Positions 2,731-62,270 of a DNA stretch of 64,000 bases are shown here, piece after piece. The position numbers were made by a program, and so were the translations under genes. Origin of the DNA: Chiloscyllium plagiosum (Eukaryota). The notes beneath the pieces were generated by a model. That model ran no database searches. It worked only from the letters and a program-made list of their open reading frames with translations, and had not been told where the DNA came from. The DNA lies in contig NC_057718.1 of assembly GCF_004010195.1 (NCBI RefSeq), positions 67,893,872 through 67,957,871 of the forward strand. The letters are read 5' to 3'. Numbering within the stretch: the stretch's first letter is position 1; each line of letters starts with the position of its first letter.

Positions 2731-2967
2731 CGTATCTGTGGAGAGAAATCAGAGTTAATGTTTCGGGTCGAGTGACCCTTTCTCAGAACTGATGGTAGCG
2801 AGGAAAATGTCAGTTCATATGCATAAGATTGGGTGGGGTAGGGGCTAAGGTGTAAATATTAGGTGGGGATAGAGACCAAAGAGAGAGAAGAGCAATTGGA
2901 CAGACAAAGGAGCGGATAAAACTCTGACTAAGAAGGTGAATACTTATAAATAGAGACCGGTAATGAC

Positions 2968-3475
2968 TAATAGGAAGGATATTATTAAGCTGGAGAGGGT
3001 TCAGAAGAGACTTGCCAGGATGTTGTTGTGGATTGAAGGTTTGAGTTATAAAATAAGATTGGATAGGTTGGCATTGTTTCCACTGGAGGAGAGGAAGTTG
3101 AGAGGTGACCTGATAGAAGTTTCTATAATAATGAGAGGTATAGATAGAGTTAGTGGTAGTGGTCTTTTGCCTAGGATGGGGAATTTAAAGAATAGGGGGC
3201 ACATTTTTAAAGGTGAGAGGAGAAAGATTTAAAACAGACATGAGGGGCATATTCTTTACATAGAGGGTGGTTCACGTGTGGAATGAACTGCCTGAGGAAG
3301 TGATGGATACGAGTACAACTACAACGTTTGAAAGACATTTGGATAAGTATGTGAACAGGCAAGGTTTGGAGGGATGTGGGACAGGAACAGGCAGGTGGCA
3401 CTAGTTTAATTTGAGATAATGTTTGACATGGACGGGTTGGACCAAACGGTCTGTTTCCAGGCTGTATGACTGTGA
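2968..3475 (+). mobile_element. CR1 LINE 3' fragment nested in the PLE end
   Basis: RKDIIKLERVQKR...LRGDLIEV C-terminal ORF2 motif and CR1 3' UTR ending ctgtatgactgtga. Confidence 0.9.
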
Positions 3476-4850
3476 GAATAACAGGTAGTCTATAATGGCA
3501 GGCTATGTGATAACAAGGGGATTGATATGTGGGGATTTGGGTAAGGACATGGGAGTGCTCAGTCCCTAAAGTTATTGAACTCTATATTGAGTACAAAAGA
3601 CTGCAGCGTCCCCAAGTGGAAAATGAGGTACTGTTCTTCTAGCTTGCACTGAACTTCACTGGAGCACTGCAGCAAGCCTGAAACAGAAAAGTTGGCCAGG
3701 GAACAGGGTGGTTTATTAAAGTAGCAGCCAATTGGAAGCTCAGGGTCTTTCTGGCAGACAGAACATAAGTGTTATGTGAAGCGGCCACTCTGTCTATGCT
3801 GCGCTCCCCCAGTGTGGAGGAAATAACATTGTGAGCAGAGAAGGCTGTAAACTAGATTATGGGAAATGCAGGTAAAGCACTGCTTCATCTAAAAAGTGTG
3901 TTTGGGTCCTTGAGGAGGGGGGAAGAAAACAACAGGTGTAACAGGTATTACACCTTCTGTGGTTGTAGGGTAAGGTGCCATAAGGCTTTAGGGAGGGTGT
4001 TAGGAGTGAATGAAGAGTGAATGAGGGTGTCCCAGAAGGAACAGTCCCTGTGGAAGGCTGACAAGGAAGGGGAGGGTAATAAGTGTCTAGTGATGGCACC
4101 TTGCTGGAGATGGTGGAAATGGTAGCTAACGATCCTCTGGCTGTGGATGCCAGTGGGATGGTAAGTAAAGACAAGGGGAACTCTAAAGCTGTTGCGGGAG
4201 GGAAGAGAGGGCATAAGGGGAGATAGGTTGAACCCAGCTAAGGGCCCCGTCAACAAGGTGCTGGGGAATCCTCAGTTAAGGAAAAAGGTGGGCATTTCAG
4301 AGACACCCTTGTCAAAGTTGGCATTGTTGGAACCGAAGTAATGGAGATGGAGGAACTGGGAGAATGGAATAGAGTGTGACGATGTTAGTCAAGATAACTG
4401 TGGCTTTATAGTGAATGTTGGTGGACAGTCTATCCCCAGAAATAGAAACAGAAATGTTGAGGAAGGGAAGGGAGGAGTCAGAAATGAAGGTAAGACCATG
4501 GTGGAAATTGGAAGCTAAATCGATTAACTTTTCAAATGAACAAGAGAGGGAAGAGCATCGACGATATTTTCGATATACCGAAGAATGAGTTGTGGGGGCT
4601 GGAATAGGACTTGAACGAGGAATGTTCAATGGACCCCACAGAGACAGGCATAACTGCGATGCTGTGTGGGTACCCATGGCCAATCCCCTGACCTGAAGAA
4701 AATGAGAGAAGTGAAAAGAGAAATCATTCAGAGTGAAGATGAGCTCAACCAGGTGGATGAGTTTGGTGGTCGTGGTGGATGGGGATGGTTCAGGAAGAAG
4801 CGGACAGCCTTGAAACCATTTTGGCAGGGGATGGACGCATAAAGGGATTG

Positions 4851-4980
4851 GGCAAAAGTGAGGACTGCAGATGCTGGAAACCAGAGTAGAGATCAGAGTG
4901 GTGCTGGAAAAGCACAGCAGGTCAGGCAGCATCCGAGGAGCAGGAAAATCGACGTTTTGGGCAAAAACCCTTCATCAGGA
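4851..4980 (-). mobile_element. 130-bp PLE-end mini-insertion with hammerhead motif
   Basis: Minus strand begins tcCTGATGAagggtttttgcccAAAACGTC; flanked by atggacgcataaagggattg (4831-4850) and atggatgcgtaaaaggattg (4981-5000). Confidence 0.8.
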
Positions 4981-5534
4981 ATGGATGCGTAAAAGGATTG
5001 CACATCCATGATAAAGAAAAAGCAACTGGAGCCAGCAAGCTGGAAATTCTGAAACTGGTGTAAAACATTGGAAAAATTGAGAAAAGAGAGTTGAGGTAGG
5101 AAGAGATAAATTATGTGGGACAGGATCAGACAGAAATAATGAGTCTACCTCTTTGTGGATTTACGGAAAGGTAGAAGTGAGCTGTGCAGTTGAGAGACTA
5201 CCAGCTTGGAGGCAGTTGGGGGGTGATCACCAGATCAAATAAGGTTGGCAACTGTCATTGACACAATGGCCTGATGTTCCTTCATGTGGTCATGGTCTGG
5301 TGGAGACGGGAGGAGGTATTGCTGGCATTCAGCCTCTGCAACGTAGAGGTCCGTCCGCCAGACTACAACAGCACCACCTTTCTCAGCAGGCTTAATTATA
5401 AAGTCAGGGTTGGATCTGAGAACATGGAGTGCAATCATTTCCAGGGAGTATAAGAGCATTCAAAGTTTGTGCGAAGATTTGTAGCTCGGGTGCTCGTTGT
5501 TGTGGTTCTGTTCGCCGAGCTGGAAGTTTTTGTT

Positions 5535-5574
5535 GCAAACGTTTCGTCCCCTGGCTAGGCGACATCATCAGTGC
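5535..5574 (-). ncRNA. Minimal hammerhead ribozyme motif (antisense twin of 5697-5736)
   Basis: Exact reverse complement within the left arm of the inverted repeat. Confidence 0.75.
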
Positions 5575-5696
5575 TGGGTACCCAATATACCAACCACGAC
5601 AGCGGACAGCTGAAACTGACAACAGGAAGCGGCAGGGACAGACCACTATAAACACCAGAGGAAACATCAAAGAAGCGCTTCGCAAGAGGCTCCCAA

Positions 5697-5736
5697 GCAC
5701 TGATGATGTCGCCTAGCCAGGGGACGAAACGTTTGC
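5697..5736 (+). ncRNA. Minimal type I hammerhead ribozyme motif
   Basis: GCA-CTGATGA-t-GTCgCCT agcc AGGgGAC-GAAA-CG-TT-TGC: intact core, paired stems I and II, ACGT palindrome in place of stem III. Confidence 0.75.
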
Positions 5737-5782
5737 AACAAAAACTTCCAGCTCGGCGAACAGAACCACAACAGTATAAGAG

Positions 5783-7030
5783 TATAAGAATCAAAAGAAT
5801 AAAATATTATTTTAATGGAGAATGACTCCAAAATAGTGCAGCATGAAGGGCTTTTGGAGTTCTTGTGCATGAAGCACGAAAAATGTGGTCTCCTCTACCT
5901 TGGGGAAACAAAGCATAGACTGGGTGCCCACTTTGCAGAACATCTATGTTCTGTCCCCAAAAAAGACCCTGAACTTCCAGTTGCCTGCCACTTCAACACA
6001 TCACCTGTTCCCTGGCCAACATCTCTCTCTCCAGTTTGTTGCAGTGCTCCAGCAAAGTTCAGCGCAAGCTGGAAGAACAGCACATCACTTTCCACATGGA
6101 GGCTCTGCGGCCTTCTGGACTCACTATAGAGTTCAACAGCTTTCGGACTTGAGCTTCTCTTGTCCTTACTCAACCCCCAAATTCCAGGTCCACATCGTCT
6201 GCTATTACACACAACCTATTGGCAGCCACTAATTGTCCTCATTAGTAGCTATTCATCTTCCTCGCCTGACCATTACCAACTCCTTTGTCTGTCCAACTGT
6301 CCATCTCGCTCTTTGGGCTCTATCTCCACCCATTATTTACTTCTTACTCTTTTCGCTCCACACCTTACCTACTGCATTAAAAAAAACAATATTTTCCTAG
6401 CCACCACCAGTTCTGAAGAAGGGTCACTGGACCCAAAATGTTAACTCTGATTTCACTCCATAGATGCTGCCAGACCTGCTGAGCTTTTCCGGAAATTTTT
6501 GTTTTTGTTTCTGATTTCCAGCATCCGCAGTTCTTTCAGTTTTCAAAATGTAAATACTCAGACACAGTAAGTAATTAAGAAGGCAAATAGAATTTGGCTT
6601 TTATTGTTAGAGCTTTGAAGTCTAAAGTTATAGAAGCCTTGTTACACTTGTACAAGGTATTGGTGAGGACAGACCTGGAATAAAGTTTTGGTCCCTTTAT
6701 CTCGAATGGACATGTAGGCATTGGAGGAAATTCAAAAGAGAATCACTAGGCTGATTCCCGTGTTGAAGCGGCTTGGCATGACAAGAATGGTTAAACTAAT
6801 TAAGCTTTCATTCTTTAGACGAATGAGCTCATTGAAACGTGCAAAATTCTGACAAGATTTAACATGATACGTGTTGAGACGATGAAAGTATTTAAAGAGG
6901 AGGTAGGTTAGTGTTTGATATATTGGGGCATTGAGGGTGATGAGCAGCTGGCACAAAATAAAGAGTTCCTGCTTATTGAATGGGAGCCAGGCTTGAGGGG
7001 ATGAATGGCCTACTTTAATTTCTTATGTCT
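5783..7030 (+). mobile_element. Old CR1 ORF2/3' remnant split by a PLE fragment
   Basis: Degenerate KYYFNGE..GVLVHE sequence before 5880 resumes after 6551 (aagaaggcaaatagaat...tgtacaaggtattggtgagg). Confidence 0.7.
5887..6544 (+). mobile_element. PLE 3' fragment (GIY-YIG C-terminus + pLTR)
   Basis: CGLLYLGETKHRLGAHFAEHL...LPVACHFN; hammerhead-like CTGAAGAagggtcactggacccAAAATGTT from 6413; aaaatgt repeated at 5880-5886 and 6545-6551. Confidence 0.85.
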
Positions 7031-7792
7031 ACTTCAGATAAATTACAACAGATGATGTCATGCAGAAGTTAGAAGGAGGATGGAGATGGCCAGAAGTTAT
7101 GTAAGTGAAGGATTTGTGAGGAAGAAAACACGTGCTTTGCTCCAAAGGATACAAAAGATACTACATTGTATCCACTTCCTTATATGCCTCCGAGACTAAC
7201 ACAATAAATTCTGACCTGTGGAAGAAAATACAGGTCTTTGAAATTTGCAAGTGAAGACATATGATAAAAAAATCACATCCAAACCATAAGATAAATGAAA
7301 ACTTGAAATTAGAAAAGAAAAAGTGCTTTGTAAAGTGCTTTGTAAAGTGACATCCAAAATAAAAAAGGTCTTGTTATTTTGACCAATTGATTAGGGGACT
7401 GGATGCCAGCAAGTAAAGAAATAATGAGTGACTGGGGTCTGAGGTACAGCAGGAAGTTTTTGGACAAGTAAATAGAATATAGAGGATAGGAGGCTGGCCA
7501 CGGGTATTGGATTATCAAATCTGAAGGTTACAATGGCATGGGTGAGAGTTTCATCAGCAGATGGCTTGCAGCAGGACAGATCTTACTGGTTTGTAGGACA
7601 GACTTGAAGGATATATTGATAAGAACATTCACCTTGGGGATGAATCGGATGACAAAGTTGGAAAGCATCTGTTGGAGCTTAAGACTATAGAAAAGTGAGG
7701 TGTTGAATTAAGGTCAAGGATACAAGGTTTGTGATCTGTACCAGTATGGTTGCTTTGATTGTTGAATTGGAGGAAATTGAGATTACTGCAAG

Positions 7793-7815
7793 ACTGTCTG
7801 TCTGTCTGTCTGTCT
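7793..7815. repeat. (CTGT)n microsatellite
   Basis: ctgtctgtctgtctgtctgt. Confidence 0.85.
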
Positions 7816-7919
7816 CTGTCAGTCAACCATCCTAACAATTCAGTTAATTGACAGATGGAAGCAAGTGATGAAGAAAATTGAGCTATTTAATATCAGTGTA
7901 CATGTGAGAGCTGACTCAT

Positions 7920-8021
7920 AAGTGAGGACTGCAGATGCTGGAGTACCAGAGTTGAAAAATGTGGTGCAAATGTGGTGCCCGGCCTGCTGTGTTTTTTCCA
8001 GCACCACATTTTTCAACTCTG
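7920..8021. mobile_element. Tiny fold-back PLE-end fragment
   Basis: 21-bp perfect inverted repeat 7947-7967 / 8001-8021; same family as 4851-4980. Confidence 0.75.
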
Positions 8022-8419
8022 CTATCAAGGTAAGGTATGTCACTGAGAATGAGGAGTAGGCTGAATATAGCCATTGAAAGAACCCATCACTTGCCACAAT
8101 GAATAGTTAAGAATAGAACAAAGCGAAGGAAATCCCACTAGGTGGAGTAGGATGATGTGATTAATCATGAAATGATGACAAAATTTCAAGGAGGGAATTG
8201 CACCAAGGAGGCTATTTTGGGTTCCACTTTTTGAATAGGACCATCTGAGTGCAGCAAATACTTGATTAGAAATATTACAAAAAATATTATACTGATTTGT
8301 AAGACAAGAGCAAGATTAAAGACTTCAGTGGTTTATAAAGTTGCCAAGCAAGTTGTAAGTTTGAGTATGTGAGGTATTTTAGAATTTAGCAAAGGTGGAC
8401 CAAGTGACTGATTTCTTTT

Positions 8420-10210
8420 TTTAAAAACAGCATAGAATGAAAGTAAACTAGCAAGGAGGGAGACTGTAAAAGTTGCTACATGCATGCAAAAAGGCAGAGA
8501 TTATCAAAGATAAATTAGGACTATTTTTAGTACTTATAATGGAGAATAAGGAAATGGCAGCTCTACTGAATAAATGTTTTGTCTGTCTCAATAGAGGAAG
8601 TTGCACAAAAACCTCCCAGAAATATTAGTGAACCAAGATTGAGAATGAGAAATCTTAAATTGTTATTAAAGAAATTAGATTGCCATTTGATAGTACAGAA
8701 CTTGAGCATTACTGCAAAAAGATACATTATGTCCAAGTATTTCATCCTACATTCATACAATTCAAAAGTACTACCAAAGTAAAGGAAAATCAATGTTATG
8801 CTGTATGAAAAGTCAGTACTGATTCCTTGACAAATAGATTCTAGTTGATAGAAGTGTTGCCATGGAGAATGCACCAATTATTGAATGCTGACAGTTAAAC
8901 GTCAGACGTTGTTTAAAATTTAAACAAGGCAGTTTGGCCGTTGTCAAAGCACTGTTGTGAGAAATGAGCCAGGGAATGTCAGTCTCCTATTTTGTTACAT
9001 TGAAACAGGTGCAGTATGTGTACCTGTTCTTTCTGTCATCAAAGAACCTGGGTGTATTAATATATGTGGCTTCCAATAATGCCATACTGCAAACCTGACT
9101 GATGATCAGTATAATTCTTCGAAGCAAATGTTTCTATTTGCAAAATCACATTTAATATTGGACATTAGTGTTTAGTTTTGTAAGCTAGTTAGTACATTGC
9201 TTGTTGCAAACAGCAAAGGGTTATGCTGTCTGATATGATCTGCAGTCATTGGGACATATGGCCTCCACACCTAGCGTCACACCTACGCAGACGTTCATGT
9301 ATTACATTACTCATTTGTGTGATAGGCAAAACGTCCTTATGGCTTGGCAGCAGCGTCTTGTTAGTGGAGAGAATCACTCATGTTGCTACTGCATTTTGGA
9401 AACAGTGGATGTGGTGTATTAGATTTTGAAAATCCAATTTGATAAGGTCCCAAACAGGAAGTCATTAAAATTAGAACGCATGGGAGTGACAGTCACTTAA
9501 TATTATGGATTGAGAATTAGTCAATTGAGAGAAAACAGAATGGAAGAAAAGAAATTATTCTCAGTTTGGAAAGCTATCATAAGTAAGGACTGCATGGGTC
9601 CGAATTTGAGGTCCCAGTTTTGTGCAATCTATCAACATTTTGGATTTGGGATGAAATGTAGTATTTTCAAATTTGCTAATAAAATAAAACTAAATGGTAC
9701 TGAGTGTTTGAGGAAGACATGGTTTCAAGGGAGTTTAGATGGGTTTATGTGAGTGGGCAAAAATCTGGCAGATGGAACATAATGCAGGAAGATAGGAAGT
9801 TACCCACTTTGGATGAAACAGAAATGCAGAGTTTTTTATTCTTTACCGTATTCTTGAAAATTTAGAAGAATAAGAGGCAGTCTCATTATAAAATACAGTA
9901 GGGTTAGTGAAAGAAAAATTATCCCTCAGTTTTGGGGGTTTTGTACAGGGGCATGGTCTTCGAATAAGGGAGTCAACCATTTGGGATTGAGTTAAAGATG
10001 ACTTATTTTTCACTCCGAAGGTACTGAAACATTAGAATTGTCTTGCCTAGAGGACAAGGCTTGTTATTGAACATGCCCAAGATAAGAGATCAAAGGATAT
10101 GGGTCAGTTTCGGGAAATAGCAATTGATCAAGAAAATGAGCTATGACCTAGTTGATTGACTGAATGGGAGAGAGGACCTGATAGGCCTACTCCATTGATT
10201 TCCTTGTAAA
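8420..10210 (+). mobile_element. Old CR1 ORF2 remnants
   Basis: Degenerate VDVVY.DF...FDKVP (~9405-9450) and CSIFKFAN (~9660) motifs. Confidence 0.65.
8790..9385 (-). mobile_element. Remnant of a distinct PLE family (GIY-YIG end + 3' UTR)
   Basis: Minus translation LLPSHKDVLPITQMSNVIHE...CDARCGGHMSQ*..DHIRQH resembles NVVY-C-C-YVG-T-RI-QH; a related 3' UTR piece recurs at ~42425-42530. Confidence 0.65.
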
Positions 10211-10827
10211 ATTATTCATTAATGCTGAAGTTAACTTGCAGCATGGAATAAAGCTCTGACTTGTGCAGTTCCATCATTATGCAGTAGGTATTATCTTGCA
10301 GATAGGTGCTAAGGAAGTTTTAAAGATTTAAACTTTTCATATAAATTCATTCTCAGCATTTGCATTTGTATATATATTATTTAGAAATTCATGAATCGTA
10401 ACTTGGTTTGGAGATTCCATGTGATTTTTTCAAAATCAATCGGTGCCAGGCTTTTTCAAAAGACAAGTCATATGGTGGAGCAATGTGGTTAATCCTGTGA
10501 ATTGGCAAGCATTTTAGTCCACTCTCTGATTTTTGTATTGTATTGTCAAGACAGTTAAAATATTTAGATGTTCGAATTTTGCACAAGTCCTACTGTTGCA
10601 TTAATGAAATAAATAGCAGAATTATATGAACAGGCTGCTTTTTGTAGTTGAGGTGAAAAGATCTCCAACGTTTTTGTTTCCATTAGATTTGAGTGTTTGT
10701 TGGATTTTCACTTCGTTTACCCGTGAAGAAATTCTCTTGTTAATTGTAAGAGTTTTACTGATGTAAAGGTGACTCTAAATTGGAGTTTATCCTAATTAAA
10801 ATTACTCTGTTGTCATCGCAAGGAGCA

Positions 10828-13410
10828 CCAGGTGCCAGGGTCTGTGATGATTAGATTAGATTCCCTACAGTGTGGAAACAGGCCCTTCGGCCCAATAAGT
10901 CCACAATGACCCTCCAAAGAGTAACCCACCCAGACCCATTTTCCTCTGGCTAATGCATCTAACACTATGGGCAATTTAGCATGGCCAATTCACCTAACCT
11001 GCACATCTTTGGACTGTGGGAGGAAACTGGAGCACCCGGAGGAAACCCATGCAGACACAGGGAGAATATGCAAACTCCACATAGACTGTCGCCCGAGGCT
11101 GGGATCGAACCTGGGTCCCTGGTGCTGTGAGGCAGCAGTGCTAACCACTGAGCCACCATGCCGCCCGGTGATGTTTCGGATAGTGCTTTCGGGGAGGGGA
11201 AGCAGCCCCAAGTCATGGTCCACATAGGCAGCAATGACATAGGTAGGAAAAGGATGGGGGTGTAAGGCAGATATTCAGGGATCTAGACTAGACCTAGAAC
11301 ACAGAGTTGTTATCTCTGGTTTGTTATCCGTACCATGTGCTAATGAGGTGAGGAATAGGGGGAGAGAGCAGTTGAACACATGGCTACAGGGATGGTGCAG
11401 AAAGGAGGGATTGAGATACCTGGATAATTGGAACTCATTGTGGGGTAGGTGGGACCTCTACAAATGGGATTATCTACACCTGAACCAGAGGGGTACCAAT
11501 ATCCTTGGGTGGGGGAGTTGGCTAATGGTCTTTGGGAGGTTTCAAACTAATTCAGCAAGGGGATGGGAACCTGAATTGTAGCTCCAGTGTACAGGAGGTT
11601 GACAGTAATGAGGTCATGAATCAGGTTTCAAGGTTGCAGGAGTATACCGGCGGACAGGAAGTTGGTTTGAAGTGTGTCTACTTCAGTGCCAGGAGCATCC
11701 AGAATAAGGTGTGTGAACTTGCAGCTTGGGTTGATACCTGGAACTTCGATGTTGTGGCCATTTCAGAGACATGGGTAGAGAAAGGAGAGGAATGGTTGCA
11801 GGTTCTGGTATTTAGATTTTTCAGTAAGATCAGGGAAGGAGGTAAGAGAGGGGGAGGTGTTGCATTGTTCGTCAAGAACAGTATTACAGTGGCAGAAAGG
11901 ATGTTTGAGGACTCATCTACTGAGGTTAGAAGAAGGAAAGGAGAGGTCACCCTGTTGGGAGTTTTCTATAGGCTTCCAAATAGTTCTTTATGTTGTCATT
12001 GACTATAGGAATAGTAGCAGAAGACTGGAGGATAGGACACGTTGTCTCCTTGTTCAAGAAGTGGGGTTGAGACAACACTGGTAATTATAGACCAGTGAGC
12101 CTTACTTTTGTTGTGAGCAAAGTTTTGGAAAGCATTATAAGAGATAAGATTTATAATCATCTTAAAAAGGAATAATTTGATTAGGGATAGTCAACATGGT
12201 TTTGTGAAGGGTAGGTGGTGCCTTACAAACTTTATTGAGTTATTTGAGAAGGTGACCAAACAGGTGGATGAGGGTAAAGCAGTTGATGTGATGTTTATGG
12301 ATTTCAGTAAAGCGTTTGATAAGGTTCCCCACGGTAGGCTATTGCAGAAGATTCATAGGCATGGGATTGAGGGTGTTTTAGCAGTTTGGACCAGAAATTG
12401 GCTGAAAAATGACAGAGGGTGGTGGTTGATGAAAAGTGTTCATTCTGGAGTTTAGTTACTAGTGGTGTACTGCCAAGATGTGTTTTGGGGCCACTGCTGT
12501 TTGTCATTTTTATAAACGATCTGGATGAGGGCTTAGAAGGATGGGTTAGTAAATTTGCAGATGACACTAAAGTCGGTGGAGTTGTGGACAGTGCAGAACT
12601 ATGTTGCAGGTTACAGAGCGACATAGATAAGCTGCAGAGCTGGGCTGAGAGGTGGCAAATGTAGTTTAATGCAGAAAAGTGAGGTGATTCATTTTGGAAG
12701 GAGTAACAGGAATGCAGAGTACTGGGCTAATGGTAAGATTCTTGGTAGTGTGACTGAGCAGAGAGATCTCTATGACCATGTGCATAGAAAGTTGCCACCC
12801 AGGTTGATACAGTTGTTAAGAAGGTATACAGTCTGATAGCTTTTATTGGTAGATGGATTAAGTTTCAGAGCCTTGAGGTCATGTTGCAGTTATACACACC
12901 ACATTTGGAGTATTGCGTACAGCTCTGATGGCCGCATTATAGGAAGGATGTGGAAGAAGGGTGCAGAGGAGATTTACCAGGATGTTGCCTGGTATGGAGG
13001 GAAGGTTTGAGGAAAGGCTGAGGGACTTGAGGCTGTTTTCATTAAAGAGAAGATTAAGAGGTGACTTAATAGAGGCATACAAGATGATCACAGGATTATA
13101 TATGGTGGACAGTGAGAGCCTTTTTCTTTGGATGTTGATGGCTAGCGTGAGGGGACATAGCTTTAAATTGAGGGTGGTACATATAGGACAGATATCAGAG
13201 GTAAGTTCCATGCCCTTACTCAGAGTAGTAAGGGCATGGAATGCCCTGCCTGCAACAGTAGTGGGCTCACCAACATTAAGGTTATTTAAATCGTCATGAA
13301 TAAATATATGGATAAAAGTGGAATAGTGTAGGTTAGATGGGTTTTAGATTGGCTTCACAGGTTGGCGCAACATTGAGGGCTGAAGGGCCTGTACTGTGCT
13401 GTTATGTTCT
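10828..13410 (+). mobile_element. CR1 LINE, 5'-truncated with internal deletions (ORF1 esterase part, endonuclease, RT, 3' UTR)
   Basis: VHIGSNDIGRK; LYKWDYLHLNQRGTNIL; DVVAISETW; RGGGVALFVK; QHGFVKGR, DFSKAFDKVPH, FADDTK; stops and frameshifts. Confidence 0.92.
10850..11167 (-). mobile_element. HE1-like tRNA-derived SINE inserted in CR1 ORF1
   Basis: A box tggctcagtgg, B box ggttcgatccc, (TCTAA) tail; duplication gtgatg at 10844-10849 and 11168-11173. Confidence 0.92.
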
Positions 13411-13954
13411 AAAAGTACAAGGAAAACTAATGGGGCAAAAGACCGATAAATTCCCTGGATCTGATAGAATGCATCTTAGGATATTAAAGAAAATAGCTAC
13501 AAAGATAGTAGATAGTGATGATGATCTTTTCAAAAAAGAAAGGAGACAAAGATGGGTAATTATAGACCAGTTAGATTAATATCTGCTATTGTGAACATGT
13601 TAAAGTCTATCAAAAATTATGTAATAGCAAATTATTTTGAAATGAATAATAATATCATGCTGAATCAGCATGGCTTCATGAAAGAGATAGGGTTAGGGTT
13701 AAATGCCTGACAAATTTACGAAAATTGCTTGAGGAGGTAAAGAGCAAGTTAGTAAAGGGAAAGCAGTGGAATGTAATATATTTGGATTTTGGAAGGCACT
13801 CTATAAAGTACAATACATCAGGCTGCTTAATAAGATAAGAGCCTATATTGGAGGTAGTATATTAGCGTGGCTAGAGAATGAGCAAACTAATAAAAGACAG
13901 AGTTAGGGTAAGGGTCAGCATTGCAAACTATCATGCAATGCTCTAGGAATTATT

Positions 13955-14197
13955 GATTAGATTAGATTAGATTAGATTAGATTGCAGTGTGGAAACAGGC
14001 CCTTCGGCCCAACAAGTCCACACCGACCCGCCGAAGCGAAACCCACCCATACCCCTACATTTATCCCTTACCTAANNNNNGAGGAAACCCACGCAGACAC
14101 GGGGAGAACGTGCAAACTCCACACAGTCAGTCGCCTGAGGCGGGAACTGAACCCGGGTCTCTGGCGCTGTGAGGCAGCAGTGCCACCGTGCCGCCCA
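13955..14197 (-). mobile_element. Young HE1-like SINE containing an assembly gap (14076-14080)
   Basis: (TTAGA)n tail, CpG-rich body, tRNA-like head with small A-box deletion. Confidence 0.9.
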
Positions 14198-17165: not shown

Positions 17166-17282
17166 GCATTTTTTTTGATAAGGGGAGGAGGCAAAGATAG
17201 ACTGAGCCTGTGGACACTTTCATCTTAAAAGGACATTGTTGACCTTGAAGTCGCTATGCTTTCCTTTTGTTCCTACATACAG

Positions 17283-22246: not shown

Positions 22247-22278
<32 letters not shown>

Positions 22279-47760: not shown

Positions 47761-47779
47761 GATATTATTGCTTTAAAAT

Positions 47780-48396: not shown

Positions 48397-48399
48397 CTT

Positions 48400-48650: not shown

Positions 48651-48661
48651 GAAGCCGTATG

Positions 48662-49473: not shown

Positions 49474-49474
49474 T

Positions 49475-50375: not shown

Positions 50376-53300
50376 TGGATGTTTGGCCTCTTCAGGGATG
50401 CTTTAAGGAGATCCCAAGGAGTCTTCTGTGTTTCTCGGCGTCTCCTGCTGCATTCAAATTCTGAGTAGAGCATTTGCCTCAGGAATCTGGTGTGAGACTG
50501 GAAAAATCATGAAAAGTTGCAGGACTGGAGGAAATTACATATAGGGAGAGGAAAAGCTATGGAAGGGTTTAAAACAATTTTGAAATCAAGGTATTGTTTA
50601 ACCAAGATCCATTTTAAATTAACAAGCACAGGGTTGATGGGCAAGTGAGATGTGAATGGTTAATGTGAATTAGGACATTGGCTGGCAGAGTTCTGGTTTC
50701 ATTCAAGTTTGCAGAGAATAGTCAAATTTATGGAGATTCCAAAGGCATGGATGAGGTTTTCAAAAGATGAAAAAAAAAGGATGGGATGTTACAACGGTCA
50801 AAATAAACGGTTTTAATGACATGTAGTGAATGTTGCTAGCTCACCTCAGGGTCAGTTAAAACCGGTTTCAAATGAGCTGCCTGCCTCTCAAATGCCTGTT
50901 TCAAACAGTTGCCAGAAGATAATGGAGTTGGTGCATGTAGATGAGATATAGAAGAACTCTGATGAACTTGATAGTGAAACTCTGTGCATTTCCTTTACTT
51001 GGAACTGTGTACTCAGAAGTTGGTACTGAAAGTACTGCTATCACAAGTGTGTGAACTTGAAAGCAGTGATGTTATCACTAAACTTTGGAATTCTCTGACA
51101 ATGTCGAGGTCTAGTTACTGTGTGCAATGCGTAGACTGACCTTAATCTGCCTATTGTAGAATAACTCAAATTACAGTTCAAGACTTCTATCCCAAGGGGA
51201 TCAGTCACAAATCTGGTCCACCACCTGCCTTAAAGTTGCTGTTAACTTGTATGAAAGGGGAAAGTATTTGTAAGTATTTAGAGCTGCGATACATAGATAA
51301 ATGACAGACAGGTGCAACAGAGAAACCTACCTTTTAGATGAATATCGGACCTTTAGAGAGACTTTCTTTCACTTCAGTGACCTATTGTAAAGTTTGACTG
51401 CTACCTGCAGAGCTTGGATTTTTTTAAACTATGTTAAAGGCACTATATAAATGCAGGTTGTTGTAGTGTTTTAAAAAAATTAATTTGTTCATACTTTCTC
51501 TTAATGTTTAATTTGGGATTTTCTTTTATTTTCCTTTATGTCTGCTTGGAACTACTGTTTTTCTCCTTAGATTTTGTGCATACTATGATAGAATATTTCA
51601 GGCAAGAAAGTTTAACCAAAGCACTCTGATATTAAATTTTTCTATCTGAGTTTCCAACATCTCCAGTATTTTGCTTTAGTCTTTCCATTTGTTTAATTGC
51701 TACTATCAACAATGATTGAGTGTGACAGGACTGCTTTGTCCGCAACATGCTTTTTCGGTTGTTTCACACACATGTAGACTGTGGCGGGTCCTGGCATGTG
51801 CTTGTATATTTATTGGACCAGGGTTATCCCTGCCCTAATGGTAATGTTGGGTGGAGAGATTTGCCAGGCTATGAGATTCATGATTGTTGTGGAATACAGT
51901 TCTGCTGCTGATAGTCCATAGTGTTTGATGAAGTATTGATTTTGAGCTGCTAGATATTTTTCAGAGTCTAAACCATTTAACATAGTGATCATGCTAGGCA
52001 ACGTGGTGTATCTATAACCATACATTTTCCTTTAGGTCAAGAAAATACACAACATGAAAGGATTAGGGCTGAGAAGGGAGCTTGCAAGTACTCTCATGTT
52101 TGTTACTTTTGTCCTTGTGTGGTAGTGGTCTGATTTTTGGAAAAGGCTGCCAAATAGTCTTGTTGAGTTGCTCCAACGCATCTTACAGCTATCAATGTGC
52201 AATTCTCCTTCCAAGTCCAAGATCTATCTTGCTTGACTAACACATGCAGGAACCACTGAGCGAGTGTCTTAAATGGAGTTGTTTATAAATTCCACTTTAA
52301 TACCCAATGAATAATTTCAGTTCTGTGGCTTGAAAAGAGATCAAATATAATAACAGGAATCAAAGTAATTCCCTAGAAGTTGTATTACTTCTCGTCTCAT
52401 CATGCCTTGGGCATATTTCAGAAAAGCACAAATCGTTTTATTTAGAAGCTCTGCTATTGTGTCTCCCACTTTTATATCTAAATTCACATCCACTGATGCA
52501 AGTTCTAATCATACCACATCTTAATGACTAGTATCTTACAAAAACTGGGTTTACAAATGATGCTTACTATGCAGGCAAATATTGTAAGTAATGTATTATT
52601 GTGAGATCTCAATAACTTGGGTCCTCGGTGCTCCTTGGATGTGCATGTTGCAGCTGTGCTTAATGAGTAATACCTAATCATTTTCCTGATATTATTAGCA
52701 TTGTGGATTTACTGACAGCACGTGGGCTGCAGCAGTTTAAGAAGGCAGCTCAACGCCACCTTCTCTCGGACACCTGAAGATGCAATAAATACTGGCTTGA
52801 CTGGCAATGTCAAAATTCCATGAATGAGCAAAAATAAGTATCATAAAATTTATACCTTCTTCCATAGTCCTATTTAAAGTCATAGAGCTCTACAGCATGG
52901 AAACAGACCCTTTGGTCCAACTAGTCCATGCCCACCAATACGTACATTGTTTATTTCTGCTTGTTAATTTGCATATCTCTCTGTGCCAAAATTAAATTTT
53001 ATATGCTTCAGTCTTATCATTCCTTTCTCTTTTCTGATCTAAGGTACTCTGTTTACTGTTTACATGAGACACAGGAGCAGGTATAGACTGTGTAGTTCTT
53101 CAAACCTGCTGTGACAGCACTTTCATCATGATTTCATGAAAATTCTTGGCTAAACCTTTAAATGATTAAACTTTATTTTCTTAACTGGTTCTAGCATTCC
53201 ACCCAGTTCTTTTATTTCCATCCACTCCAGTTCAGTCATTCCTAAAATTATTAATACAATGCTTGAATATGCCTTGAGAAAGAACTTGAGTTTATGTTGA

Positions 53301-54950
53301 AATTCCACGTTTCCCAGGGTTTCCCAAAGAATCCATAGCCATGAAATTCGTTTTTTAAATTCGACTTCTGTTGTATGGCCAAAAGTGGGAGTGGGTTTAC
53401 AAGCATCAAAGTCCAAAAAACTACCAGAAGGTAACTAATTAAAAAATTATTAATGGTGGTTTTTGAGGGAGAAGTATTTATCTTAGTAATTGGAAAACTT
53501 GCTGCTGTACTCAGTGCGCAGTGGGATTGTTTATATTCACTTGAACAGGCACAAACTATCTCCGTTTAATCCTACCAGCTGAAATTTGGTGTTCAAGTTC
53601 AGAATGGATTTGGAGTCCATGGGTTGAATGTTATGGGGCCTGTAAAAATGGAAAATGGGGGGGAGGGGGAGGTGATTTAATTAGGTGGGAGGTGAAATTT
53701 CATTTTCCAATGGGTTCAGATTTAGAATTTAACTTTTATGTTTGTGGCAGGTCAGGCCTTCTGCTATCCCTAGTGCATCCCCAGTTGCAATCTATCTGCA
53801 TGCTGTGAAGGCTAATTCAGTGGTACTCAGTTAAAATGCATTCAAAGGTGGCATGCAGTAGATGGCTTTGTTCTGTTGTTTCTAAAGTCAGCAGTTGTCC
53901 TTATTGAGAGAGAAGTAGAATGGCTTGCATGGGGGTTCAGGGCCAGCATTGGTGAGTTGGTAGTAGTGGGCTGCGTGGATTGGAGTCAGTGATGTGGTAT
54001 CAAAAAGAGATATGAATGACAGACAAAGGATGAGATTGGGGGTATGGAGGAGTGATGCATAAAGGGTCTAAAACTCTGGTTCTGATCAGGGTGATGGGAA
54101 ATCGAAATAAGAAAATAAGGGATACAAGGGGCAGTGTCAGTAAAACCATCTCAGGGTTTCGGCTGGTATAGTCCTTATGGGGCTTTGAGTTCACTTACAA
54201 CACTTCAGTTATTTCGACTGTATGATTTAGACAATGTCCTTTACAACGTGTAGAAGGAAGGGCCATTTGAGTCTTAAAATAAAACAAAGAATTGCAGATC
54301 TGAAACAAAAACAACAAATTGCTGAAGAAACAACAAAACAAAAGCAGCATCTGGAGAGAAAACAATTAACATTTGGTGAGGTGGTGTTCCCATGGATCAC
54401 TAAACCTGAGAGAAATGGACAAGAAAAAAAAACTGAAGTGCTAATAATGAGAACTGATGAGACTACTGTGTTTATTTACGACCTTAAGCTTCTGTCAGCT
54501 GTTGAGAGAAATTTATGTGTAAACATAATTGTACTTTGGCACTGTAACAAAGATCCAGGTAAACATTAGCACTTTCAATACTAAACCATTTTTAATGTAT
54601 TATCAAAGAAAATTAAATATTAATATCAAGATTGATAACAATCTCAAATTATAATTCCATTTAGTTGTAATATCTGTATAATGTGAACAGAGAACAATCT
54701 TCTCAGCTATACTTTTCAATGGTTTTTTTTACCATGGAATGCCAGTTAACAACTTAAAACCCACCTGTTCTGTGAATTGGTATACCTGTGGGCACTTTAA
54801 TTTGCAAAGCAGACTCTGTTTCATGATCTTTAAAGTGATTGTTTGAAATAAACACAACAGGGTTTTATTTTCATCCAAGTACTTTACATACAGAATGGTC
54901 AAATGTAGAGATTTTAGCCACAATTTTCTCTCAACATAAGAAGTTAAAGA

Positions 54951-57730
54951 TGAAATAACTCCACAGAGGCTGGTTTCCCATCACCAAGTTGTCCTTTACT
55001 TACAAGTGCACCTCAGAGCCAGCTCTGAGTGAAGAGAATCTCTGAGAATATCTGTTAGCCGGGGCTGCCTGTTTGGGACTGTTAACTTGGTCCAATCAGG
55101 GAACTCTTATATCCCTCCCCCTCTAAGTCCAGGGATACAGACTTGTTCATTTTCTTGTATCCTCCTGCAACATTTTCACAATGGGTCTGGTTCTTCTGAC
55201 TCTGCTTTGGACATGGATGATGTGTACCAGACCATAGCCTGCGTCTTTTACCTGACCTTCTCAGAAGAAATTCTTCCTCTTCAGGCGGTAAAAGTATTCA
55301 GACTACAACATCCGCCGAGTCCGTCTCAGCCTCTGAGGTTTCTTTGCTAGATGGAGGGGGAGAACGCATGGGTTCCAATAGCCTTTCTAGCTGTTCTGAC
55401 CTGATTGAGTATGTTTTGCTCCTGCTTCGTTCACGACTTTGCAGCTTTCATATGGTCCACTTGCTTGTTCAGACTGTCTCACCTACCCGAACTTGGTACG
55501 TCACAGTACCTGACCGGATCTCACATTGACCATGCCACTTACCCATGCAGGGCCATTTCCGTGGTTTTGGCGCCAAACGTCATTCCCCGAAGTAAAAGTC
55601 TCTGTTGCTTAGAGGAGTTTTGCATGCAGAATTGGCATTCCTAAAGCTGTTGACACCTCAGTCCCCCATCCGAAGATCAGATTTAACCTTGTGCAGAGTC
55701 TCCTCCCCATTAGCCACTCTGCTGGAACTATCCGTATAGTTCTGTGAAGGGTAGTCCGATAATCAAATAGGAATCAGGACAATTTGGTGTGAGGTAAAGC
55801 TGTAGACTGTTTCTTTAAGCTTGCATCCAAAGTTTAGACTGCTCTTTCCACCAAGCCATTGGACAATGGATGGTATGGAGTTGTCGTTGTATGCCAAATG
55901 CCATTCGACTTTAGGAAATACTGGAATTCCCTGCTGGTAAATGACAGCCTATTGTCTGTGGCCAACACTTCCGGGAGTCCATGTATTGCAAAAGTTGCTT
56001 GTAGCTTTTCTATCGTCATCCTATGTTTGACAAGTGAACTTTATTCACGGCCAACCACTTTGAATGGGTGCTCATAATGAGTAAGAAGGTTTCGCTCATG
56101 AAAAGAACAGCATAGACGACTTTGGTTCACCCAACCATTCTCACAAATGTGGGGAAGTTGCTGGTGATAATTTTCGTCCTTGTTGGCAATCTGGGCATCA
56201 GATAGAACTTCTTTCTTCATTTTGGACACCCCCCGTGGAGTTCAGCCAGTATAAAGCGACAAACTTTGCTCGGGCCAACTACTCTTGCTCCTCATAATAA
56301 ATTGCTGTCTGCGATAGTGATCTGGTCTCACCAGGTCCAGAGATGTTTCAGTTCTGATTGTGATGGCCCTTTTGTAACCCCCCCCCCCCCCCAACCACCA
56401 TTTTAGTTTTAGCAGGACGTGATCTTTTTGGATCCACAGTCTGTTATTGTCAGTGGTGACCAGAAGGAAATCCAGAAAGTTAAAAACCAGAATGGAATCT
56501 TCCAGCAGAGGCACCACTGGTGGTGTACCTGCCAGCGGGAGGTGACTCAAGGCATTGACATTTGTCTCTTGGCCTCCTCCACAATGTTCTAACTTTCACT
56601 TAAAGTAAGAACCCACCATTGAATTCAACCTGAAGCTTTGGGCAGCACAGCCTTTGGCATATTTGCACTCTGTATCAGCCAAAGTCTAGGAAACGCACTG
56701 TTGGGCATTCGTCTGCATTGGGCCATCTGTGAAGCAAAACTACCCTGATGCCGTGTGGAGAGGCATCATGTGTCAGTACCAGATCTCACTTGGAATCAGT
56801 GTTCGTCAACACCTTAGACGATGATGGCTGTTACTTGACTTGCCTAAAGACTGGCTATGAGATCATTTCCAAGGCTGACCCTTTTAAAATAGCAAATGTA
56901 AGGGTACCAGAATGGAGGCAAGGTTACGTATGAACTGTCAGTAATAATTCATCAACCGAAGGAAAGACCTAAGCTCTGGTACAGACGTGAGAGCCAGGGC
57001 ATCTTTGATTGCCCTCATTTTATCTTGCAACAGGTGTGACCTGGTATTTCGACTCCAGCCCAAGTAGGTCACTTGGAATGCCTGAAGTACATTTTTCCTT
57101 CCATCAGGCTTGGGTCCGAGTCTTTTACTACAATCAGTGGTAACTGAACCAGCTGCTTCTCATACAAGACCAGAACCAAAGTTGTACTCTTAATCTGTAA
57201 GCATTCACCAGTATAGGTTCTCAGTCTAGCCGAGGCCTTATGCAAACTTAAGGGTTGGAGTCCACAGAGAATTTTGTCAAATGCTGGTCCTACAACCAGC
57301 AATATAGCTGTGTCGGTGTAAACCTCCATTAGGACCAGGTGACCATTTAACCAGTTGTCTATTTTGATTGGTTCTGATTTGGATGTGGCTGAGTAATTTA
57401 ACTGTTCCAAACCAGATGTAGATGGACTTGCCAGGATGTGTACTCTCTTAGATACCGGTCTATGAGTTCTCTTACATTTAGGTCTACTGGGACTCTCACT
57501 GTCTTGACTCTGCAAACTGGCAACAACTACAATGACTTGCTGGCTTGGATCCTGGAGAAAATGTTGACTGTTTGATCGAGGCATGGTTTTATTTTGGGGT
57601 TTTGCTGTGGGATGACCTAGACTCCCTCTGTTCAGGAAATGTTCTGAGTTAGGCTGTGTAATTGCCTTCACTTAAATGGTGTTCAACTGACTTGCTGCCA
57701 GTTTTGCCAGAGACACCAACTCGGTAGCAT
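54951..57730 (-). mobile_element. Decayed Gypsy/Ty3 LTR retrotransposon with 3' LTR
   Basis: Order protease (LMEVYTDTA) - RT end (ELRSFL.LMNYY) - RNase H (DASPHGI) - integrase (HGLPEVLATDN..PYHPLSNGLVERAV); PPT AGAGGGGGAGGGA at 55112-55124; short LTR ~54951-55111. Confidence 0.85.
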
Positions 57731-59341
57731 AGTGTTAAGATTCTCAACTACTTTGTTTCTAAGAAATTCTCCTATATTCCATCCTAGTGCTCAATTCCTC
57801 TCAGCATATCTCTGCACTGCATTACAAAACTTCATCCTAAACCTACTTAGATTCAAAACAATTTTGTCATTTTCAGTTTCTTTAACATGTTTGAACCAAT
57901 TTCTTAGTGAGTTATTTCTCATTGAAAATACCACAGCAGAAAATTTTTTATTTTTGGTCATTAGAGATGTACTGAGGGCATTACCTTTGCACTCAACACC
58001 TGACAAAATAGGGTGTGGGCACTGAGAAAAGAATGGAGATGCACAGCAATTGGATCTCTTGCTTGTGGTGCTATAGTATGACTAGAAGACCAGACTGACT
58101 TGGAGCTTTCGTTGTGGGAGATCCGAGAGTCTGAAGTTTTCGCATAAAGAGCAAGAATTAAGACAGTGCCAACTGTTCTCTCCCTTCTCCATCTGTATCC
58201 CTTCTGCACGTTTCTTGATAGAATATTGGAGATCCCAAGAGTCTGTGGACCTCTCGTTTTGGAATCCTGGATCTTCCTTTGCTGTTGAGCAGAAAATGGT
58301 ATTTGGAGAAGGAACTGCACACCAAAAAAAAAGTACTGACTTTTAGCTAATGCCTTTGGGACTCCAGCTAAATGGTGATGATAAACTGCTGAATGATAGT
58401 GTTGAAGGAGTACATTTACATCCCTGTTGGTTAATCCAGTGAGAATAAAAACTGTTCTTACAACTGGAAAGTTTGAGGACCCCTTTAAGATTTGACCTGT
58501 CAACTTTCGTGTAATTTTCATGTCACATGGTGTGGTCTTGATTAAATGATTGAACTCATTCAAACCATCTTGTAACTGAAAGCAATCCCACTGATGTGGC
58601 AGTCCTGAAAGACTTTGTGGTTAGAAGTGCTTTCTATTCTATGGTCCCACTGGGCCACATACCTTTTATATTGGTCTCAACTTTTAGGTGTTGGTGACAA
58701 ACAGAGACGATAGTACCAAGCACATTTCCCTATTTGGGAAAGTGTGTTAGTTCTCAAGCCCTACTCCTCACAGAATTGCCATGAAGGTTAATGGTCTAAT
58801 CAAAACATGCAAAGTTCCTGATTTAAATTTCGGAATTATGTTAGCAGAAAATATTGACCAGAATTTCTGTACTTAACAAAAACTGCTGTTATCAACTCAT
58901 TATTTCTAATCACAAGTTAACAGCATAACAGCATAAACTGTCAGCATAACGCTCCACTAGTTAAAAATCACAATTGAACAAACTAATCAGCTACTCGTTG
59001 ATGAAATCTCACTCTGCACATATCTACTGGTGGCATTTACTAACAGCTTTCCCATTGCTTGAAAAACCAGTAGTCTAAATTTAATGAGTTTCATTAACTT
59101 GTGCAGCCGTTTCTTCCACAGATTTCCTTTCTTTGTTTTTAAAACAGTCCTTGTTTTTCATTTTAGTCCACAATCAAAAACAGAATGATATGGTCTTACA
59201 GAAGTGGCAAATTCTAACTAACATAACACAGTCTGACATAACACATTTTGTCAAAATGAATAGGGAAAGGCCATGTAGATTTACTGGCACATTTCTAAAG
59301 AGTATACAAGGATAAAGGAACCTGAAAGTTCATGTGCACAT

Positions 59342-59506
59342 ATGATTTGGAGATGCCGGTGTTGGACTGGGGTGTACAAAGTTAAAAATCACACAACACC
59401 AGGTTACAGTCGAACAGGTTTATTTGGAAGCATTAGCTTTCGGAGTGCTGCTCCTGCTTCCAAATAAATCTGTTGGACTGTAACCTGGTGTTGTATGATG
59501 TTTAAC
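59342..59506. mobile_element. Fold-back PLE mini-element
   Basis: 52-bp inverted arms 59381-59432 / 59455-59506 (4 mismatches); duplication catgtgcacat at 59331-59341 and 59507-59517. Confidence 0.85.
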
Positions 59507-59820
59507 CATGTGCACATCACCTGAGGGTGGAAGGATATATTGAGAGAGCAGTTAATCAAGTACCTGAACAGTATATGGAATTTTGGACGTCATAAATTGA
59601 GGTATTTTGTATTAGAGCAGGCAACTGTTGCTGAGGTATCCTAAAGTTCTGGTTAGGCTACAACTGGGTTATTGCTTCCAGTTCTGGTGATCATACTTCA
59701 AGAAAATTTTGAGAGTTTTTGAGAAGGTGCAGAGGAGATTTAACAGAATTGTTCTAAGGATGAAGTAGCTTACCCACAAGGTTGCATTGGAGAAGCTAAA
59801 GTTGTTCTGCTCAGAGCTTG

Positions 59821-59946
59821 AACTACCTGATGAAAGAGCAGTGCTCTGAAAGGGAGTGCTTCCAAATGAACCTCTTGGACTATAACCTGGTGGTTTGTGA
59901 TTTTTAACTTTGTGCACCCCAGTCCAACACTGACACCTCCAAGTCA
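59821..59946 (+). mobile_element. PLE-end mini-insertion (AGCT family) starting near hammerhead
   Basis: CTGATGAaAGAGCagtGCTCTGAAA from 59827; palindrome mutated. Confidence 0.75.
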
Positions 59947-60369
59947 TGCTTGGAGCAAAGCAGATTTAATAGAAGTTATGACAGATTTAGATAACGTAGG
60001 CAAAGAAAAGCTGTTTGCATCAGTTGATGTTAGAAGGAATAGTGGACAAAGATATAAAGTTTGAGTGAAGCGGGGGTGTGGGAAAAACTTTAGTCAGTGA
60101 GTGATAATGACCTGGACCCCTCTGCCTTGGAGGGTAATGGCAGTAGAGACTATTGATGATTTAGATAGTGTGTTCAATGAACATTTGAAGCAAGTAAATA
60201 GGCAGGGTTACAAGGATAGAGAAGATGAATAGGATAGATTGGATTACTCTTCCAGGAACTGCCATGGAATGCCCCCTTATATCATAATGACTGGTAACTA
60301 ATTATTTGGCTAAATTCATAATCTGTTATCAACAGTAATTTATATTTATGATATGGAAGATTTGAGGAC

Positions 60370-60730
60370 GTTGAGAGGTGACCTTGTAGAAGTTTATAAA
60401 ATAATGAGAGGGATAGATAGAGTTAATGGTAGTTGTCTTTTCCCTCGGATGGGTGATTTCAAGACTAGGGGGCGCATTAAGTCAGAGGAGAGAGATTTAA
60501 AAAAGACATGAGGGCCAAATCTTTTATAGAGGATGGTTTGTGTGTGGAATGAGCTGCCTGAGGAAGTGATGGATGTGGTATTATTAAAACATTTAAACGA
60601 CCTTTGGATAAGTACATGAATAGGAAAGGTTTGGAGGGATATAGGCCAGGAGCATGCAAGTTTAATTTGGGATTGTGTTCGGCATGGACTCGTTGGACCA
60701 AAGGGTCTGACTCCATGCTATATGACTCTT
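60370..60730 (+). mobile_element. CR1 3' fragment (subfamily of 2968-3475)
   Basis: LRGDLVEVYKIMR; tail ctatatgactct. Confidence 0.9.
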
Positions 60731-61619
60731 ATGTAATCATAAGTGCTTCAACAAAGATCTTTGCAGATTATAAGTTGCTATCCTCCAAAGCAATGTAGAA
60801 AATGCATTGACCTCTGTGATGTGGTACAACATTCACTATACATCTACATACTCTTCTAAAACATTCTTGGGCCTTAAATAGTATTTCTGCAGGTACCATT
60901 ACTTTTGTTTATAGTTTGTTTTTAGAAGACCAGAAGACATAGGAGCAGAAGTGTGAGTAAGTTAACTCTTATCATTGGGCTAAATGCATTGTCTGCATTT
61001 TCCCCTCTATTATCTGGACTCATTTTACTTCCTGTGAGTTTCACGACCGAACTAGTCAACCTAATTCTGAAACTGCAATCTGTGTTCTTAATTGTCATTA
61101 TCATAGACCACTTAGTTCTCATTCTGACACCTCACTCTTGAATGCCCAGGCTGCTCCGAAAGAGCTTGTCAAGCACAGCACAGTCTTTAATAAAACAAGG
61201 TTTTAAAACAAAACTGTTCTACAGAGCTGTCATTGCTTAGACCTTGTTCAAATAGATCTGACATCAATGTTACTCACCTTATTCAATGTTACTGAAGAAA
61301 TTCAAGAAAGACATTTTCAGGTTTTCCTCTGATATCCAAGATTAGGTCATGAAATATCATTATAAACATCCCATGGTGCTTCACCAGCTAAACGTTTGAC
61401 ACAGCTATTAAGACAATGTAGTCCAAAGCTTGGTCAAAGATCAATCTCTGCTGTCCTCTGTTTACAGCCTCTTGCACTTCGCCTAGTTTCAATCAGTCTA
61501 CCATTGGCAGTCATGCCTTCAGCTGTCTGGGCCCTGAGCTCTGAAATTCCCTCCATAAACCTTTCTGTCCCATACCCATTATTCCCTAATACCAGCACTT
61601 AGAGGGAAAATAAGTGGCT

Positions 61620-62270
61620 GTAGTTCACCTGGTGTATGTACTCCTAAAATGCTGTTAGAAAGGGAGTTCCAGCATTTTGACCGAGCAGCAGTGAGAGAAT
61701 GGCAATCCAGTTCTAAAAACGGATGGTTTATGGCATGGAGGGAAACTTGTAGTTGATGTTATTCCGATGTATTTGATGCTGATGTGCTCCTATGTACAAG
61801 AGACTGTCCTCCTGGCACTGTGTATTGGTGTAGAGGGAGTAAATGTTTTGGATGGCAGGTAAAGTGAATTAAAAAGAAAGCTTTGTGCTGGATTGTGTAG
61901 AGCTTCTGGATTCCTGATGAAGGGCTTTTGCCCAAAACGTCGATTTTATTGCTCCTCGGATGCTGCCTGAACTGTTGTGCTCTTCCAGCACCACTAATCC
62001 AGTATCTGGTTTCCAGCATCTGCAGTCATTGTTTTTACCTAGAGCTTCTGGAGTCTTGTTAGTGCAATACTTCTTGAGGCAAATGGAAAATATTGCATTG
62101 CATTCCTGATTTGTGTCTTGTAAGTGACATACAGGCTTTGGGGAGTCAGGTATGAGGAACTTGTTTCAGAACTTCCAGTCTCTGATCTAGCAGTCATAGT
62201 ATATGTATGGCTGTTCTAGTTTAGTTTCTGGTCAAGCATATGCCCCTGGATGTTGACGGAAGGGGTCTTA
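61620..62270 (-). mobile_element. Remnant of the same LINE family as 24110-25520
   Basis: agggagttccagcattttgacc is the reverse complement of ggtcaaatcctggaattccct (~25107). Confidence 0.6.
61911..62039 (+). mobile_element. 129-bp hammerhead-bearing mini-insertion
   Basis: Starts ttcCTGATGAaGGGCttttGCCCaaaACGTC; perfect 13-bp duplication tagagcttctgga at 61898-61910 and 62040-62052. Confidence 0.88.

Follow-up and report, generated by a model that had tools for sequence, protein, structure and literature searches.

The window analysed here is a stretch of 64,000 nucleotides from Chiloscyllium plagiosum (genome G000, C9:67893872-67957871, assembly of 3.56 Gb). It lies within an intron of ARID1B and carries numerous small ribozyme motifs, which are minimal type I hammerheads in the pseudo-long terminal repeats (pseudo-LTRs) of four or more repeat families, called A, B, C and D below. 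Many copies are short stubs, and we consider it quite probable that these are copies of the uncut front end of Penelope-like element RNA that decay neutrally once inserted. Exon matches flank the window on the same strand at G000:C9:67839038-67839160 (55 kb before it) and 67981952-67982200 (24 kb past it), the latter matching ARID1B at 85-89%. The original prediction, that some hammerheads lie inside host transcripts, agrees with this location, and judging from exon order the window would be transcribed with the gene. The features are as follows (positions are those of the window).

1..64000, plus strand: intron of ARID1B of about 143 kb, spanning the whole window.
2757..2786, minus strand: decayed family B minimal hammerhead (G8 and palindrome changed) at the 3' pseudo-LTR of a Penelope remnant.
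3519..4812, minus strand (running from 4812 to 3519): remnant of a Penelope-type reverse transcriptase (RT) and GIY-YIG domain, interrupted by stop codons and frameshifts and lying upstream of the 2786 motif; the tblastn queries that found it were fragments of L033, L037 and the window.
4863..4988, minus strand: family A stub with hammerhead at 4978-4951, G12 lost; diverged target-site duplication seen by eye.
5447..5780, no strand assigned: young family D fold-back insertion of two inverted pseudo-LTR ends.
5535..5575, minus strand: complete family D minimal hammerhead, core from 5571, predicted cut after 5538.
5696..5736, plus strand (host sense): complete family D minimal hammerhead whose core begins at 5700 and whose cut is predicted after 5733; stem II opens with an ATG.
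5803..6138, plus strand: GIY-YIG endonuclease remnant of a 5'-truncated Penelope element, preceding the 6413 motif.
6213..6552, plus strand: family B pseudo-LTR with a decayed hammerhead at 6413-6442.
23563..23594, plus strand: B-like hammerhead with a 16-nt stem II, stems decayed.
24481..24570, plus strand: old family A stub with a decayed hammerhead at 24487.
25242..25478, minus strand (host antisense): part of a family A pseudo-LTR bearing a complete hammerhead (stem I begins at 25335 and the core at 25331; cut predicted after 25304).
29219..29286, plus strand: family C stub, G12 lost.
33272..33362, plus strand (host sense): family A stub with core, stem II and palindrome intact and stem I lost; target-site duplication of 11-12 nt.
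36561..36684, minus strand: decayed family B stub, absent from the original prediction.
44464..44551, minus strand: decayed family C stub, likewise absent from it.
48192..48398, plus strand: part of a family C pseudo-LTR; its hammerhead at 48311 keeps the exact core letters but lacks stem I and has G-U as closing pair.
59342..59498, no strand assigned: inverted pair of family C ends.
59821..59913, plus strand: family C stub, palindrome and U16.1 lost.
61910..62041, plus strand: family A stub beginning 4 bases upstream of the core, G12 lost; target-site duplication of 13 nt.

All 13 motifs first listed from the sequence are present within about 35 bases of the positions given for them, which were broadly right except that minus-strand copies had been placed by their low end (their cores start at 5571, 25331, 2786 and 4978). 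The four types of stem II and the two palindromes (ACGT and AGCT) are as described, and C11.1-G12 has suffered CpG-type damage in 8 of the 13 motifs, with G12 lost at 4978, 6413, 29220 and 61914 and C11.1 lost at 23563, 24487, 48311 and 59827. Five copies had been called intact, and the core letters are indeed exact in all of them (5571, 5700, 25331, 33273 and 48311). However, stem I, which had been left untested, is kept in only three: it has been replaced by flanking sequence at 33273 and is gone at 48311 together with the G10.1-C11.1 pair. Complete hammerheads, with core, palindrome, stem II and stem I, are confined to 5571(-), 5700(+) and 25331(-). Further copies were found at 36684(-), 44548(-) and in the inverted pair at 59342-59498, along with several fragments. 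Another family with hammerheads, its stem II longer, is represented by a decayed copy at 22799-22860 (plus strand), directly after the 3' end of a long interspersed nuclear element (LINE). The strict motif (exact core, paired stem II and palindrome) occurs six times in the window and in none of 60 dinucleotide shuffles, while exact core plus stem occurs eight times against a shuffle mean of 0.28, so that motif frequency clearly exceeds that of shuffled sequence. Searched with Rfam, the window gave no match to any hammerhead family, whether at gathering score or with E values as high as 10, and the covariance models detect no canonical type I hammerhead with helix III and a full helix I in it. 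A sub-threshold match to MIR862 in the Rfam results proved to be the inverted pair of family C ends.

The structure was compared across one natural copy each of families A, B, C, D and D2. The catalytic core (CUGANGA and GAAA, with U16.1 and H17) is exact in all five representatives, and helix II is closed by G10.1-C11.1 in every family, with one extra base (A or T) after A9. A palindromic 15.2-16.2 pair replaces helix III (C-G in four families, G-C in family C), and helix I is short, with 2-4 pairs and four pair types at positions 1-3. Over stems I and II and 15.2-16.2, pairing is kept at 33 of 35 positions with up to four pair types per position, whereas shuffling partners among families left a mean of 17.2 paired and reached 33 in 0 of 50,000 trials; this statistic is descriptive, five families being few and D and D2 related. 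The covarying stems first proposed are thus real between families, stem I included, and do not extend to the inserted copies, which decay neutrally and at CpG first. With core and flank matched by base and CpG status, family A shows 27 core mutations against 34 expected (71 copies) and family C 34 against 30 (40 copies), and the loss of G12 in 11 of 71 family A and 12 of 40 family C copies is the ordinary CpG rate. A raw comparison (2.4% vs 5.4%) had been suggestive of selection on family A cores, a signal that was gone after this matching. Since inserted copies decay neutrally, the covariation between families reflects selection on parent elements. In one family A subfamily (L125, L022 and L079), the U-U mismatch of stem I has become U-A, giving four uninterrupted pairs.

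Coding remnants support, as had been proposed, a placement of families A, B and D in pseudo-LTRs of Penelope-type elements that would encode an RT with a GIY-YIG endonuclease at the C-terminal end; family C has no such tie. In our sample, a GIY-YIG match in sense lies upstream of 5 of 6 long family B copies and 3 of 13 long family A copies, counts that include some copies serving as the query references themselves. The GIY-YIG queries matched upstream of 0 of 7 family D copies, and RT frames passing Pfam RVT_1 were found upstream of two family D copies and one family A copy. The remnant at 5803-6138 yielded 55,413 first-look candidates in the genome, and a related locus gave a weak match to Pfam PF01541, below cut-off. 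Pfam searches of 34 frames in the window returned LINE-type RT and endonuclease pieces only, and no solved structure matched the family D RT. We recovered no intact full-length element of families A, B or D; a 10-kb stretch picked as a possible full-length family D element was mostly assembly gap. From motifs, and not from a tree, we take A and B to be Neptune-like and D to be Poseidon-like.

Beyond the window, the prediction of a very large and mostly unannotated hammerhead population holds up well, with 157,630 genome-wide matches to a generic exact pattern against 676 in the control (a few overlapping matches being entered twice), and with the window lacking any Rfam hammerhead match. Exact patterns of families A, C and D matched 95,594, 20,635 and 4,124 times, each with 0 matches in a reversed control. 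Completeness was judged in 92 ten-kilobase stretches at arbitrary positions (0.89 Mb), where 47 copies with core, palindrome, stem II and stem I correspond to roughly 140,000-250,000 per genome, and 332 recognisable fragments to the order of a million.

Copies in 99 stretches (1.02 Mb) were recruited by sequence beyond the predicted cut, which kept the hammerhead from biasing their choice, and 151 of 178 family A matches passed score and edge filters. Of their 5' ends, 74 lie at -12 to +1 of the core, most often at -4, where stem I begins, while 33 fall within the core or stem II, 11 beyond the cut, and 26 copies continue into the pseudo-LTR. Only 7 of the 151 end within 3 bases of the cut, which does not exceed the background nearby. 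Family C (n = 61) has 19 ends at the start, 10 in the core, 1 at the cut, 2 beyond it and 29 copies running into the pseudo-LTR. A pile-up of ordinary copies at the cut, considered as a fossil of cleavage, is thus absent in both families. As half of the family A copies start just upstream of the core and few at the cut, most templates seem to have been uncut. From a start on the first bases of stem I, stubs extend to a point 90-130 bases downstream, and many are arranged as inverted pairs or have target-site duplications; families A and D have two or more preferred 3' ends, and a TATA-like box stands about 30 bases ahead of stem I in families B and C and, more weakly, in A. On balance, we favour the stub start being the transcript start, and the depth of reads in RNA run X7 steps down at -4 as well. 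Penelope-like insertions are described as having 5' truncation, an inverted 5' partner and an optional tail of 30-40 bases (PMC8557442), and the first two traits are found in the copies here.

A sequence of events can be proposed in which transcription would start at stem I, the RT of the element would prime internally 60-100 bases past the ribozyme, for which an anole element gives an in vitro precedent (PMC11167929), and synthesis would run off the 5' end of uncut RNA. Internal start and run-off would leave every stub with a hammerhead. The ribozyme might then serve the parent element, either as a dimer through its 4-base palindrome or together with the protein of the element, and cut a minority of transcripts. 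Cut ends may occasionally be ligated to U6 RNA and then copied into DNA.

Traces of this last step might be preserved next to U6 copies. An Rfam search gave 48 scored U6 copies, the 3' flank of 32 of which was inspected. Two of these 32 loci (L251 and L266) run into family A sequence of two different subfamilies, and both junctions begin at the first base after the predicted cut (offset 0). At L266 (G000:C7:109202434-109202843), an inverted insertion of Penelope type, the U6/family A junction at the predicted cut is present on each of the two arms. Among ordinary family A copies, 2 of 151 end at that position, and with junctions distributed like ordinary 5' ends, the chance of two exact hits would be near 2 in 10,000. 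Hammerhead cleavage leaves a 5'-OH end. In U6/LINE-1 chimeric pseudogenes, RtcB ligates U6 to just such an end (PMC6789731). The U6 junctions probably reflect cleavage in vivo and suggest that hammerheads of this kind may sometimes cut in living cells, although two cases fall short of proof. The function of minimal hammerheads in Penelope-like elements has been called unclear (PMC8557442), and the anole study found no RNA ends at the cut (PMC11167929). At 14 of the 32 U6 loci (L249, L256, L257, L260, L264, L267-L274 and L276, judged by eye), the head of the common short interspersed nuclear element (SINE) follows within about 20 bases, and at L252 a tRNA-like sequence follows.

Several observations weigh against reading the stubs as fronts of uncut transcripts and the U6 junctions as products of cleavage. 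Family D has no pile-up at the start, 15 of its 16 copies extending far upstream, and family B, whose downstream sequence recurs in related families, gives poorly resolved 5' ends. Among the 74 start-site calls in family A, a few are chance extensions at inverted junctions. An extra G, such as a copied cap would leave at the proposed transcription start, precedes the stub start in 8 of 29 solo copies against a background of 20%, which is not significant (p 0.21). No protein-coding element could be tied to family C, with GIY-YIG matches upstream of 0 of 9 long copies and no RT frame, although it shares the TATA box, stubs and inverted pairs with the other families. Finally, the U6-family A junctions number only two, and a pattern search for one exact form of the junction gave no match.

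Some of these points would also fit stub starts that arise from RT stalling or strand switching at the folded hammerhead, or from a non-autonomous, SINE-like family that has a fixed start of its own. Such an origin would explain the 33 of 151 family A copies that end in the core or stem II, the lack of a demonstrated cap G and the behaviour of family D, and an inverted partner accompanies 39 of the 74 start-site copies of family A (none is present in the other 35). However, the mode of the 5' ends is found beyond the stable stem II hairpin, on the upstream side of the core, and it has the same core-relative position in A and C, about 30 bases behind the TATA-like box. Moreover, stubs match several pseudo-LTR subfamilies and not one master. 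We consider stalling or a SINE-like family unlikely for these reasons, and keep to run-off copies of uncut RNA as the preferred origin.

We predict that copies inserted in host introns stay silent for the most part, since they stand alone, are damaged or pair with an inverted partner. The family D fold-back at 5447..5780 is predicted to form one long hairpin in host sense (-198.5 kcal/mol, z -20), in which the complete sense copy at 5700 would be fully paired with its inverted partner, and there is no complete same-strand partner in the window. The sole complete sense copy of the window is thus predicted to be locked in the fold-back. The opposite possibility, that pre-mRNA is cut by intact intron copies at a rate that matters and that selection acts against those in sense orientation, draws on the introns of ARID1B (376 kb), where complete copies number 2 in sense and 10 in antisense (p 0.04). 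Pooled over seven genes, the counts are 9 and 19 (p 0.087, at low power), and 5 and 15 for solo complete copies (p 0.04, the subset having been picked with the data in view), while near parity is found for broken copies (44 vs 48) and for two control repeats (39 vs 36 and 49 vs 50). On the other hand, the bias of ARID1B is not repeated in the six other genes, which have 7 sense and 9 antisense complete copies (the orientation of five of these genes resting on spectrin-repeat exon matches), and complete and broken copies do not differ significantly in strand (Fisher p 0.19). Cores decay neutrally, splice or promoter signals of the pseudo-LTR could bias strands too, and published monomers are described as inactive and dimers as weak (PMC4209133). 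In RNA run X7, 2,016 reads fell on the 25331 copy at 88% likeness, 94% of them continuing into unlike sequence; reads cross the cut in both directions with no step, and their depth falls at -4, not at the cut, with no place holding many molecule ends. These reads stem from many copies inside other transcripts, and a library of this kind cannot reveal rare cleavage. Frequent pre-mRNA cutting with selection against sense copies is accordingly unlikely; a depletion of complete sense copies in introns is unproven, and we see no good sign that host gene RNA is cut, the least supported part of the whole picture. A protein segment of ARID1B (query residues 23-63) matches twice, at G000:C9:67665530 and 67687682, 22 kb apart, possibly an alternative or duplicated exon.

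It might also be asked whether the motif still cuts at all or serves the element as a protein-binding or structural signal. Neither ordinary copies nor read ends are in excess at the cut, and insertion in vitro did not need cleavage (PMC11167929), but families that share little else have kept all catalytic letters and an NUH triplet, and both U6 junctions coincide exactly with the scissile bond, which leaves a non-cutting signal very unlikely. Chance matches to a short motif can be dismissed, for although a loose version occurs about six times per shuffled window, the strict and genome-wide counts and the covariation refute them.

The hammerheads of the window belong to a known class, the minimal hammerhead ribozymes (min-HHR) of metazoan Penelope-like pseudo-LTRs (Cervera and De la Pena 2014, PMC4209133). 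They share with it the core, the extra base between 9 and 10.1, the G10.1-C11.1 pair, the palindromic 15.2-16.2, the short helix I without a helix III loop, several covarying families per genome, and the occurrence mostly as single copies or opposite-strand pairs with few in full elements. Massive dispersed populations are likewise part of the published picture, although with about 4,000 motifs in coelacanth and 9,000 in Xenopus, by another descriptor, against the 157,630 exact-pattern matches here; the sections of that paper considered here name no shark and map neither copy ends nor chimeras (PMC4209133). For the Poseidon element PAc of the green anole, protein-assisted cleavage is described in vitro with no in vivo trace, and the available text mentions neither stubs starting at stem I nor U6 junctions, both of which are seen here (Frangieh et al. 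2024, PMC11167929). The U6/LINE-1 chimeras are alike in joining the U-tract end of U6 to a 5'-truncated retroelement, but there the cutting nuclease is unknown and junctions vary, whereas here both lie at the scissile bond (Moldovan et al. 2019, PMC6789731). Non-LTR retrozymes also carry type I hammerheads of Penelope origin, many of them intronic, in head-to-tail tandem arrays in contrast to the solo or inverted stubs described here (PMC7229834; Li et al. bioRxiv 10.64898/2026.07.22.740005). The sampling of Li et al. included one cartilaginous fish (10.64898/2026.07.22.740005). Our search for such an array, limited to the window, found none.

Since the class is known, the window-wide set is no surprise and its use is statistical: with more than 100,000 near-intact copies, insertion ends, chimeras and intron strand bias offer a direct genomic test of in vivo cutting. 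The informative parts are the U6 junctions and the stub start, which together with the scale go beyond what is in print according to our literature searches; these found no paper on this system in sharks, subscription papers being mostly outside their reach, and the supplements of PMC4209133 and of the 2026 preprint may list motifs or counts from cartilaginous fish. Specific to the present analysis are the strand test on introns and the location in ARID1B. The most far-reaching claim, that about 190,000 structurally complete hammerheads form a DNA record in which stubs mark the uncut transcript start, U6 chimeras mark germ-line cleavage and sense intron copies were thinned by pre-mRNA cutting, seems improbable when taken as a whole.

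The remainder of the window is rich in other mobile sequence, and its SINEs and LINEs resemble those of a shark. Broken frames at 54951-58620 (minus strand), seen by eye and matching nothing in Pfam, are presumably the pol/integrase end of a Gypsy-type LTR retrotransposon. A G+C-rich low-copy repeat with 3 matches in the sample lies beside the Penelope remnant at 2022-2720. Truncated LINE and SINE copies are abundant at 10841-15392, 22207-22888, 27922-35556, 48637-50377 and 62552-63748, and at least 39% of the window matches repeats, as judged from a 1-Mb sample.

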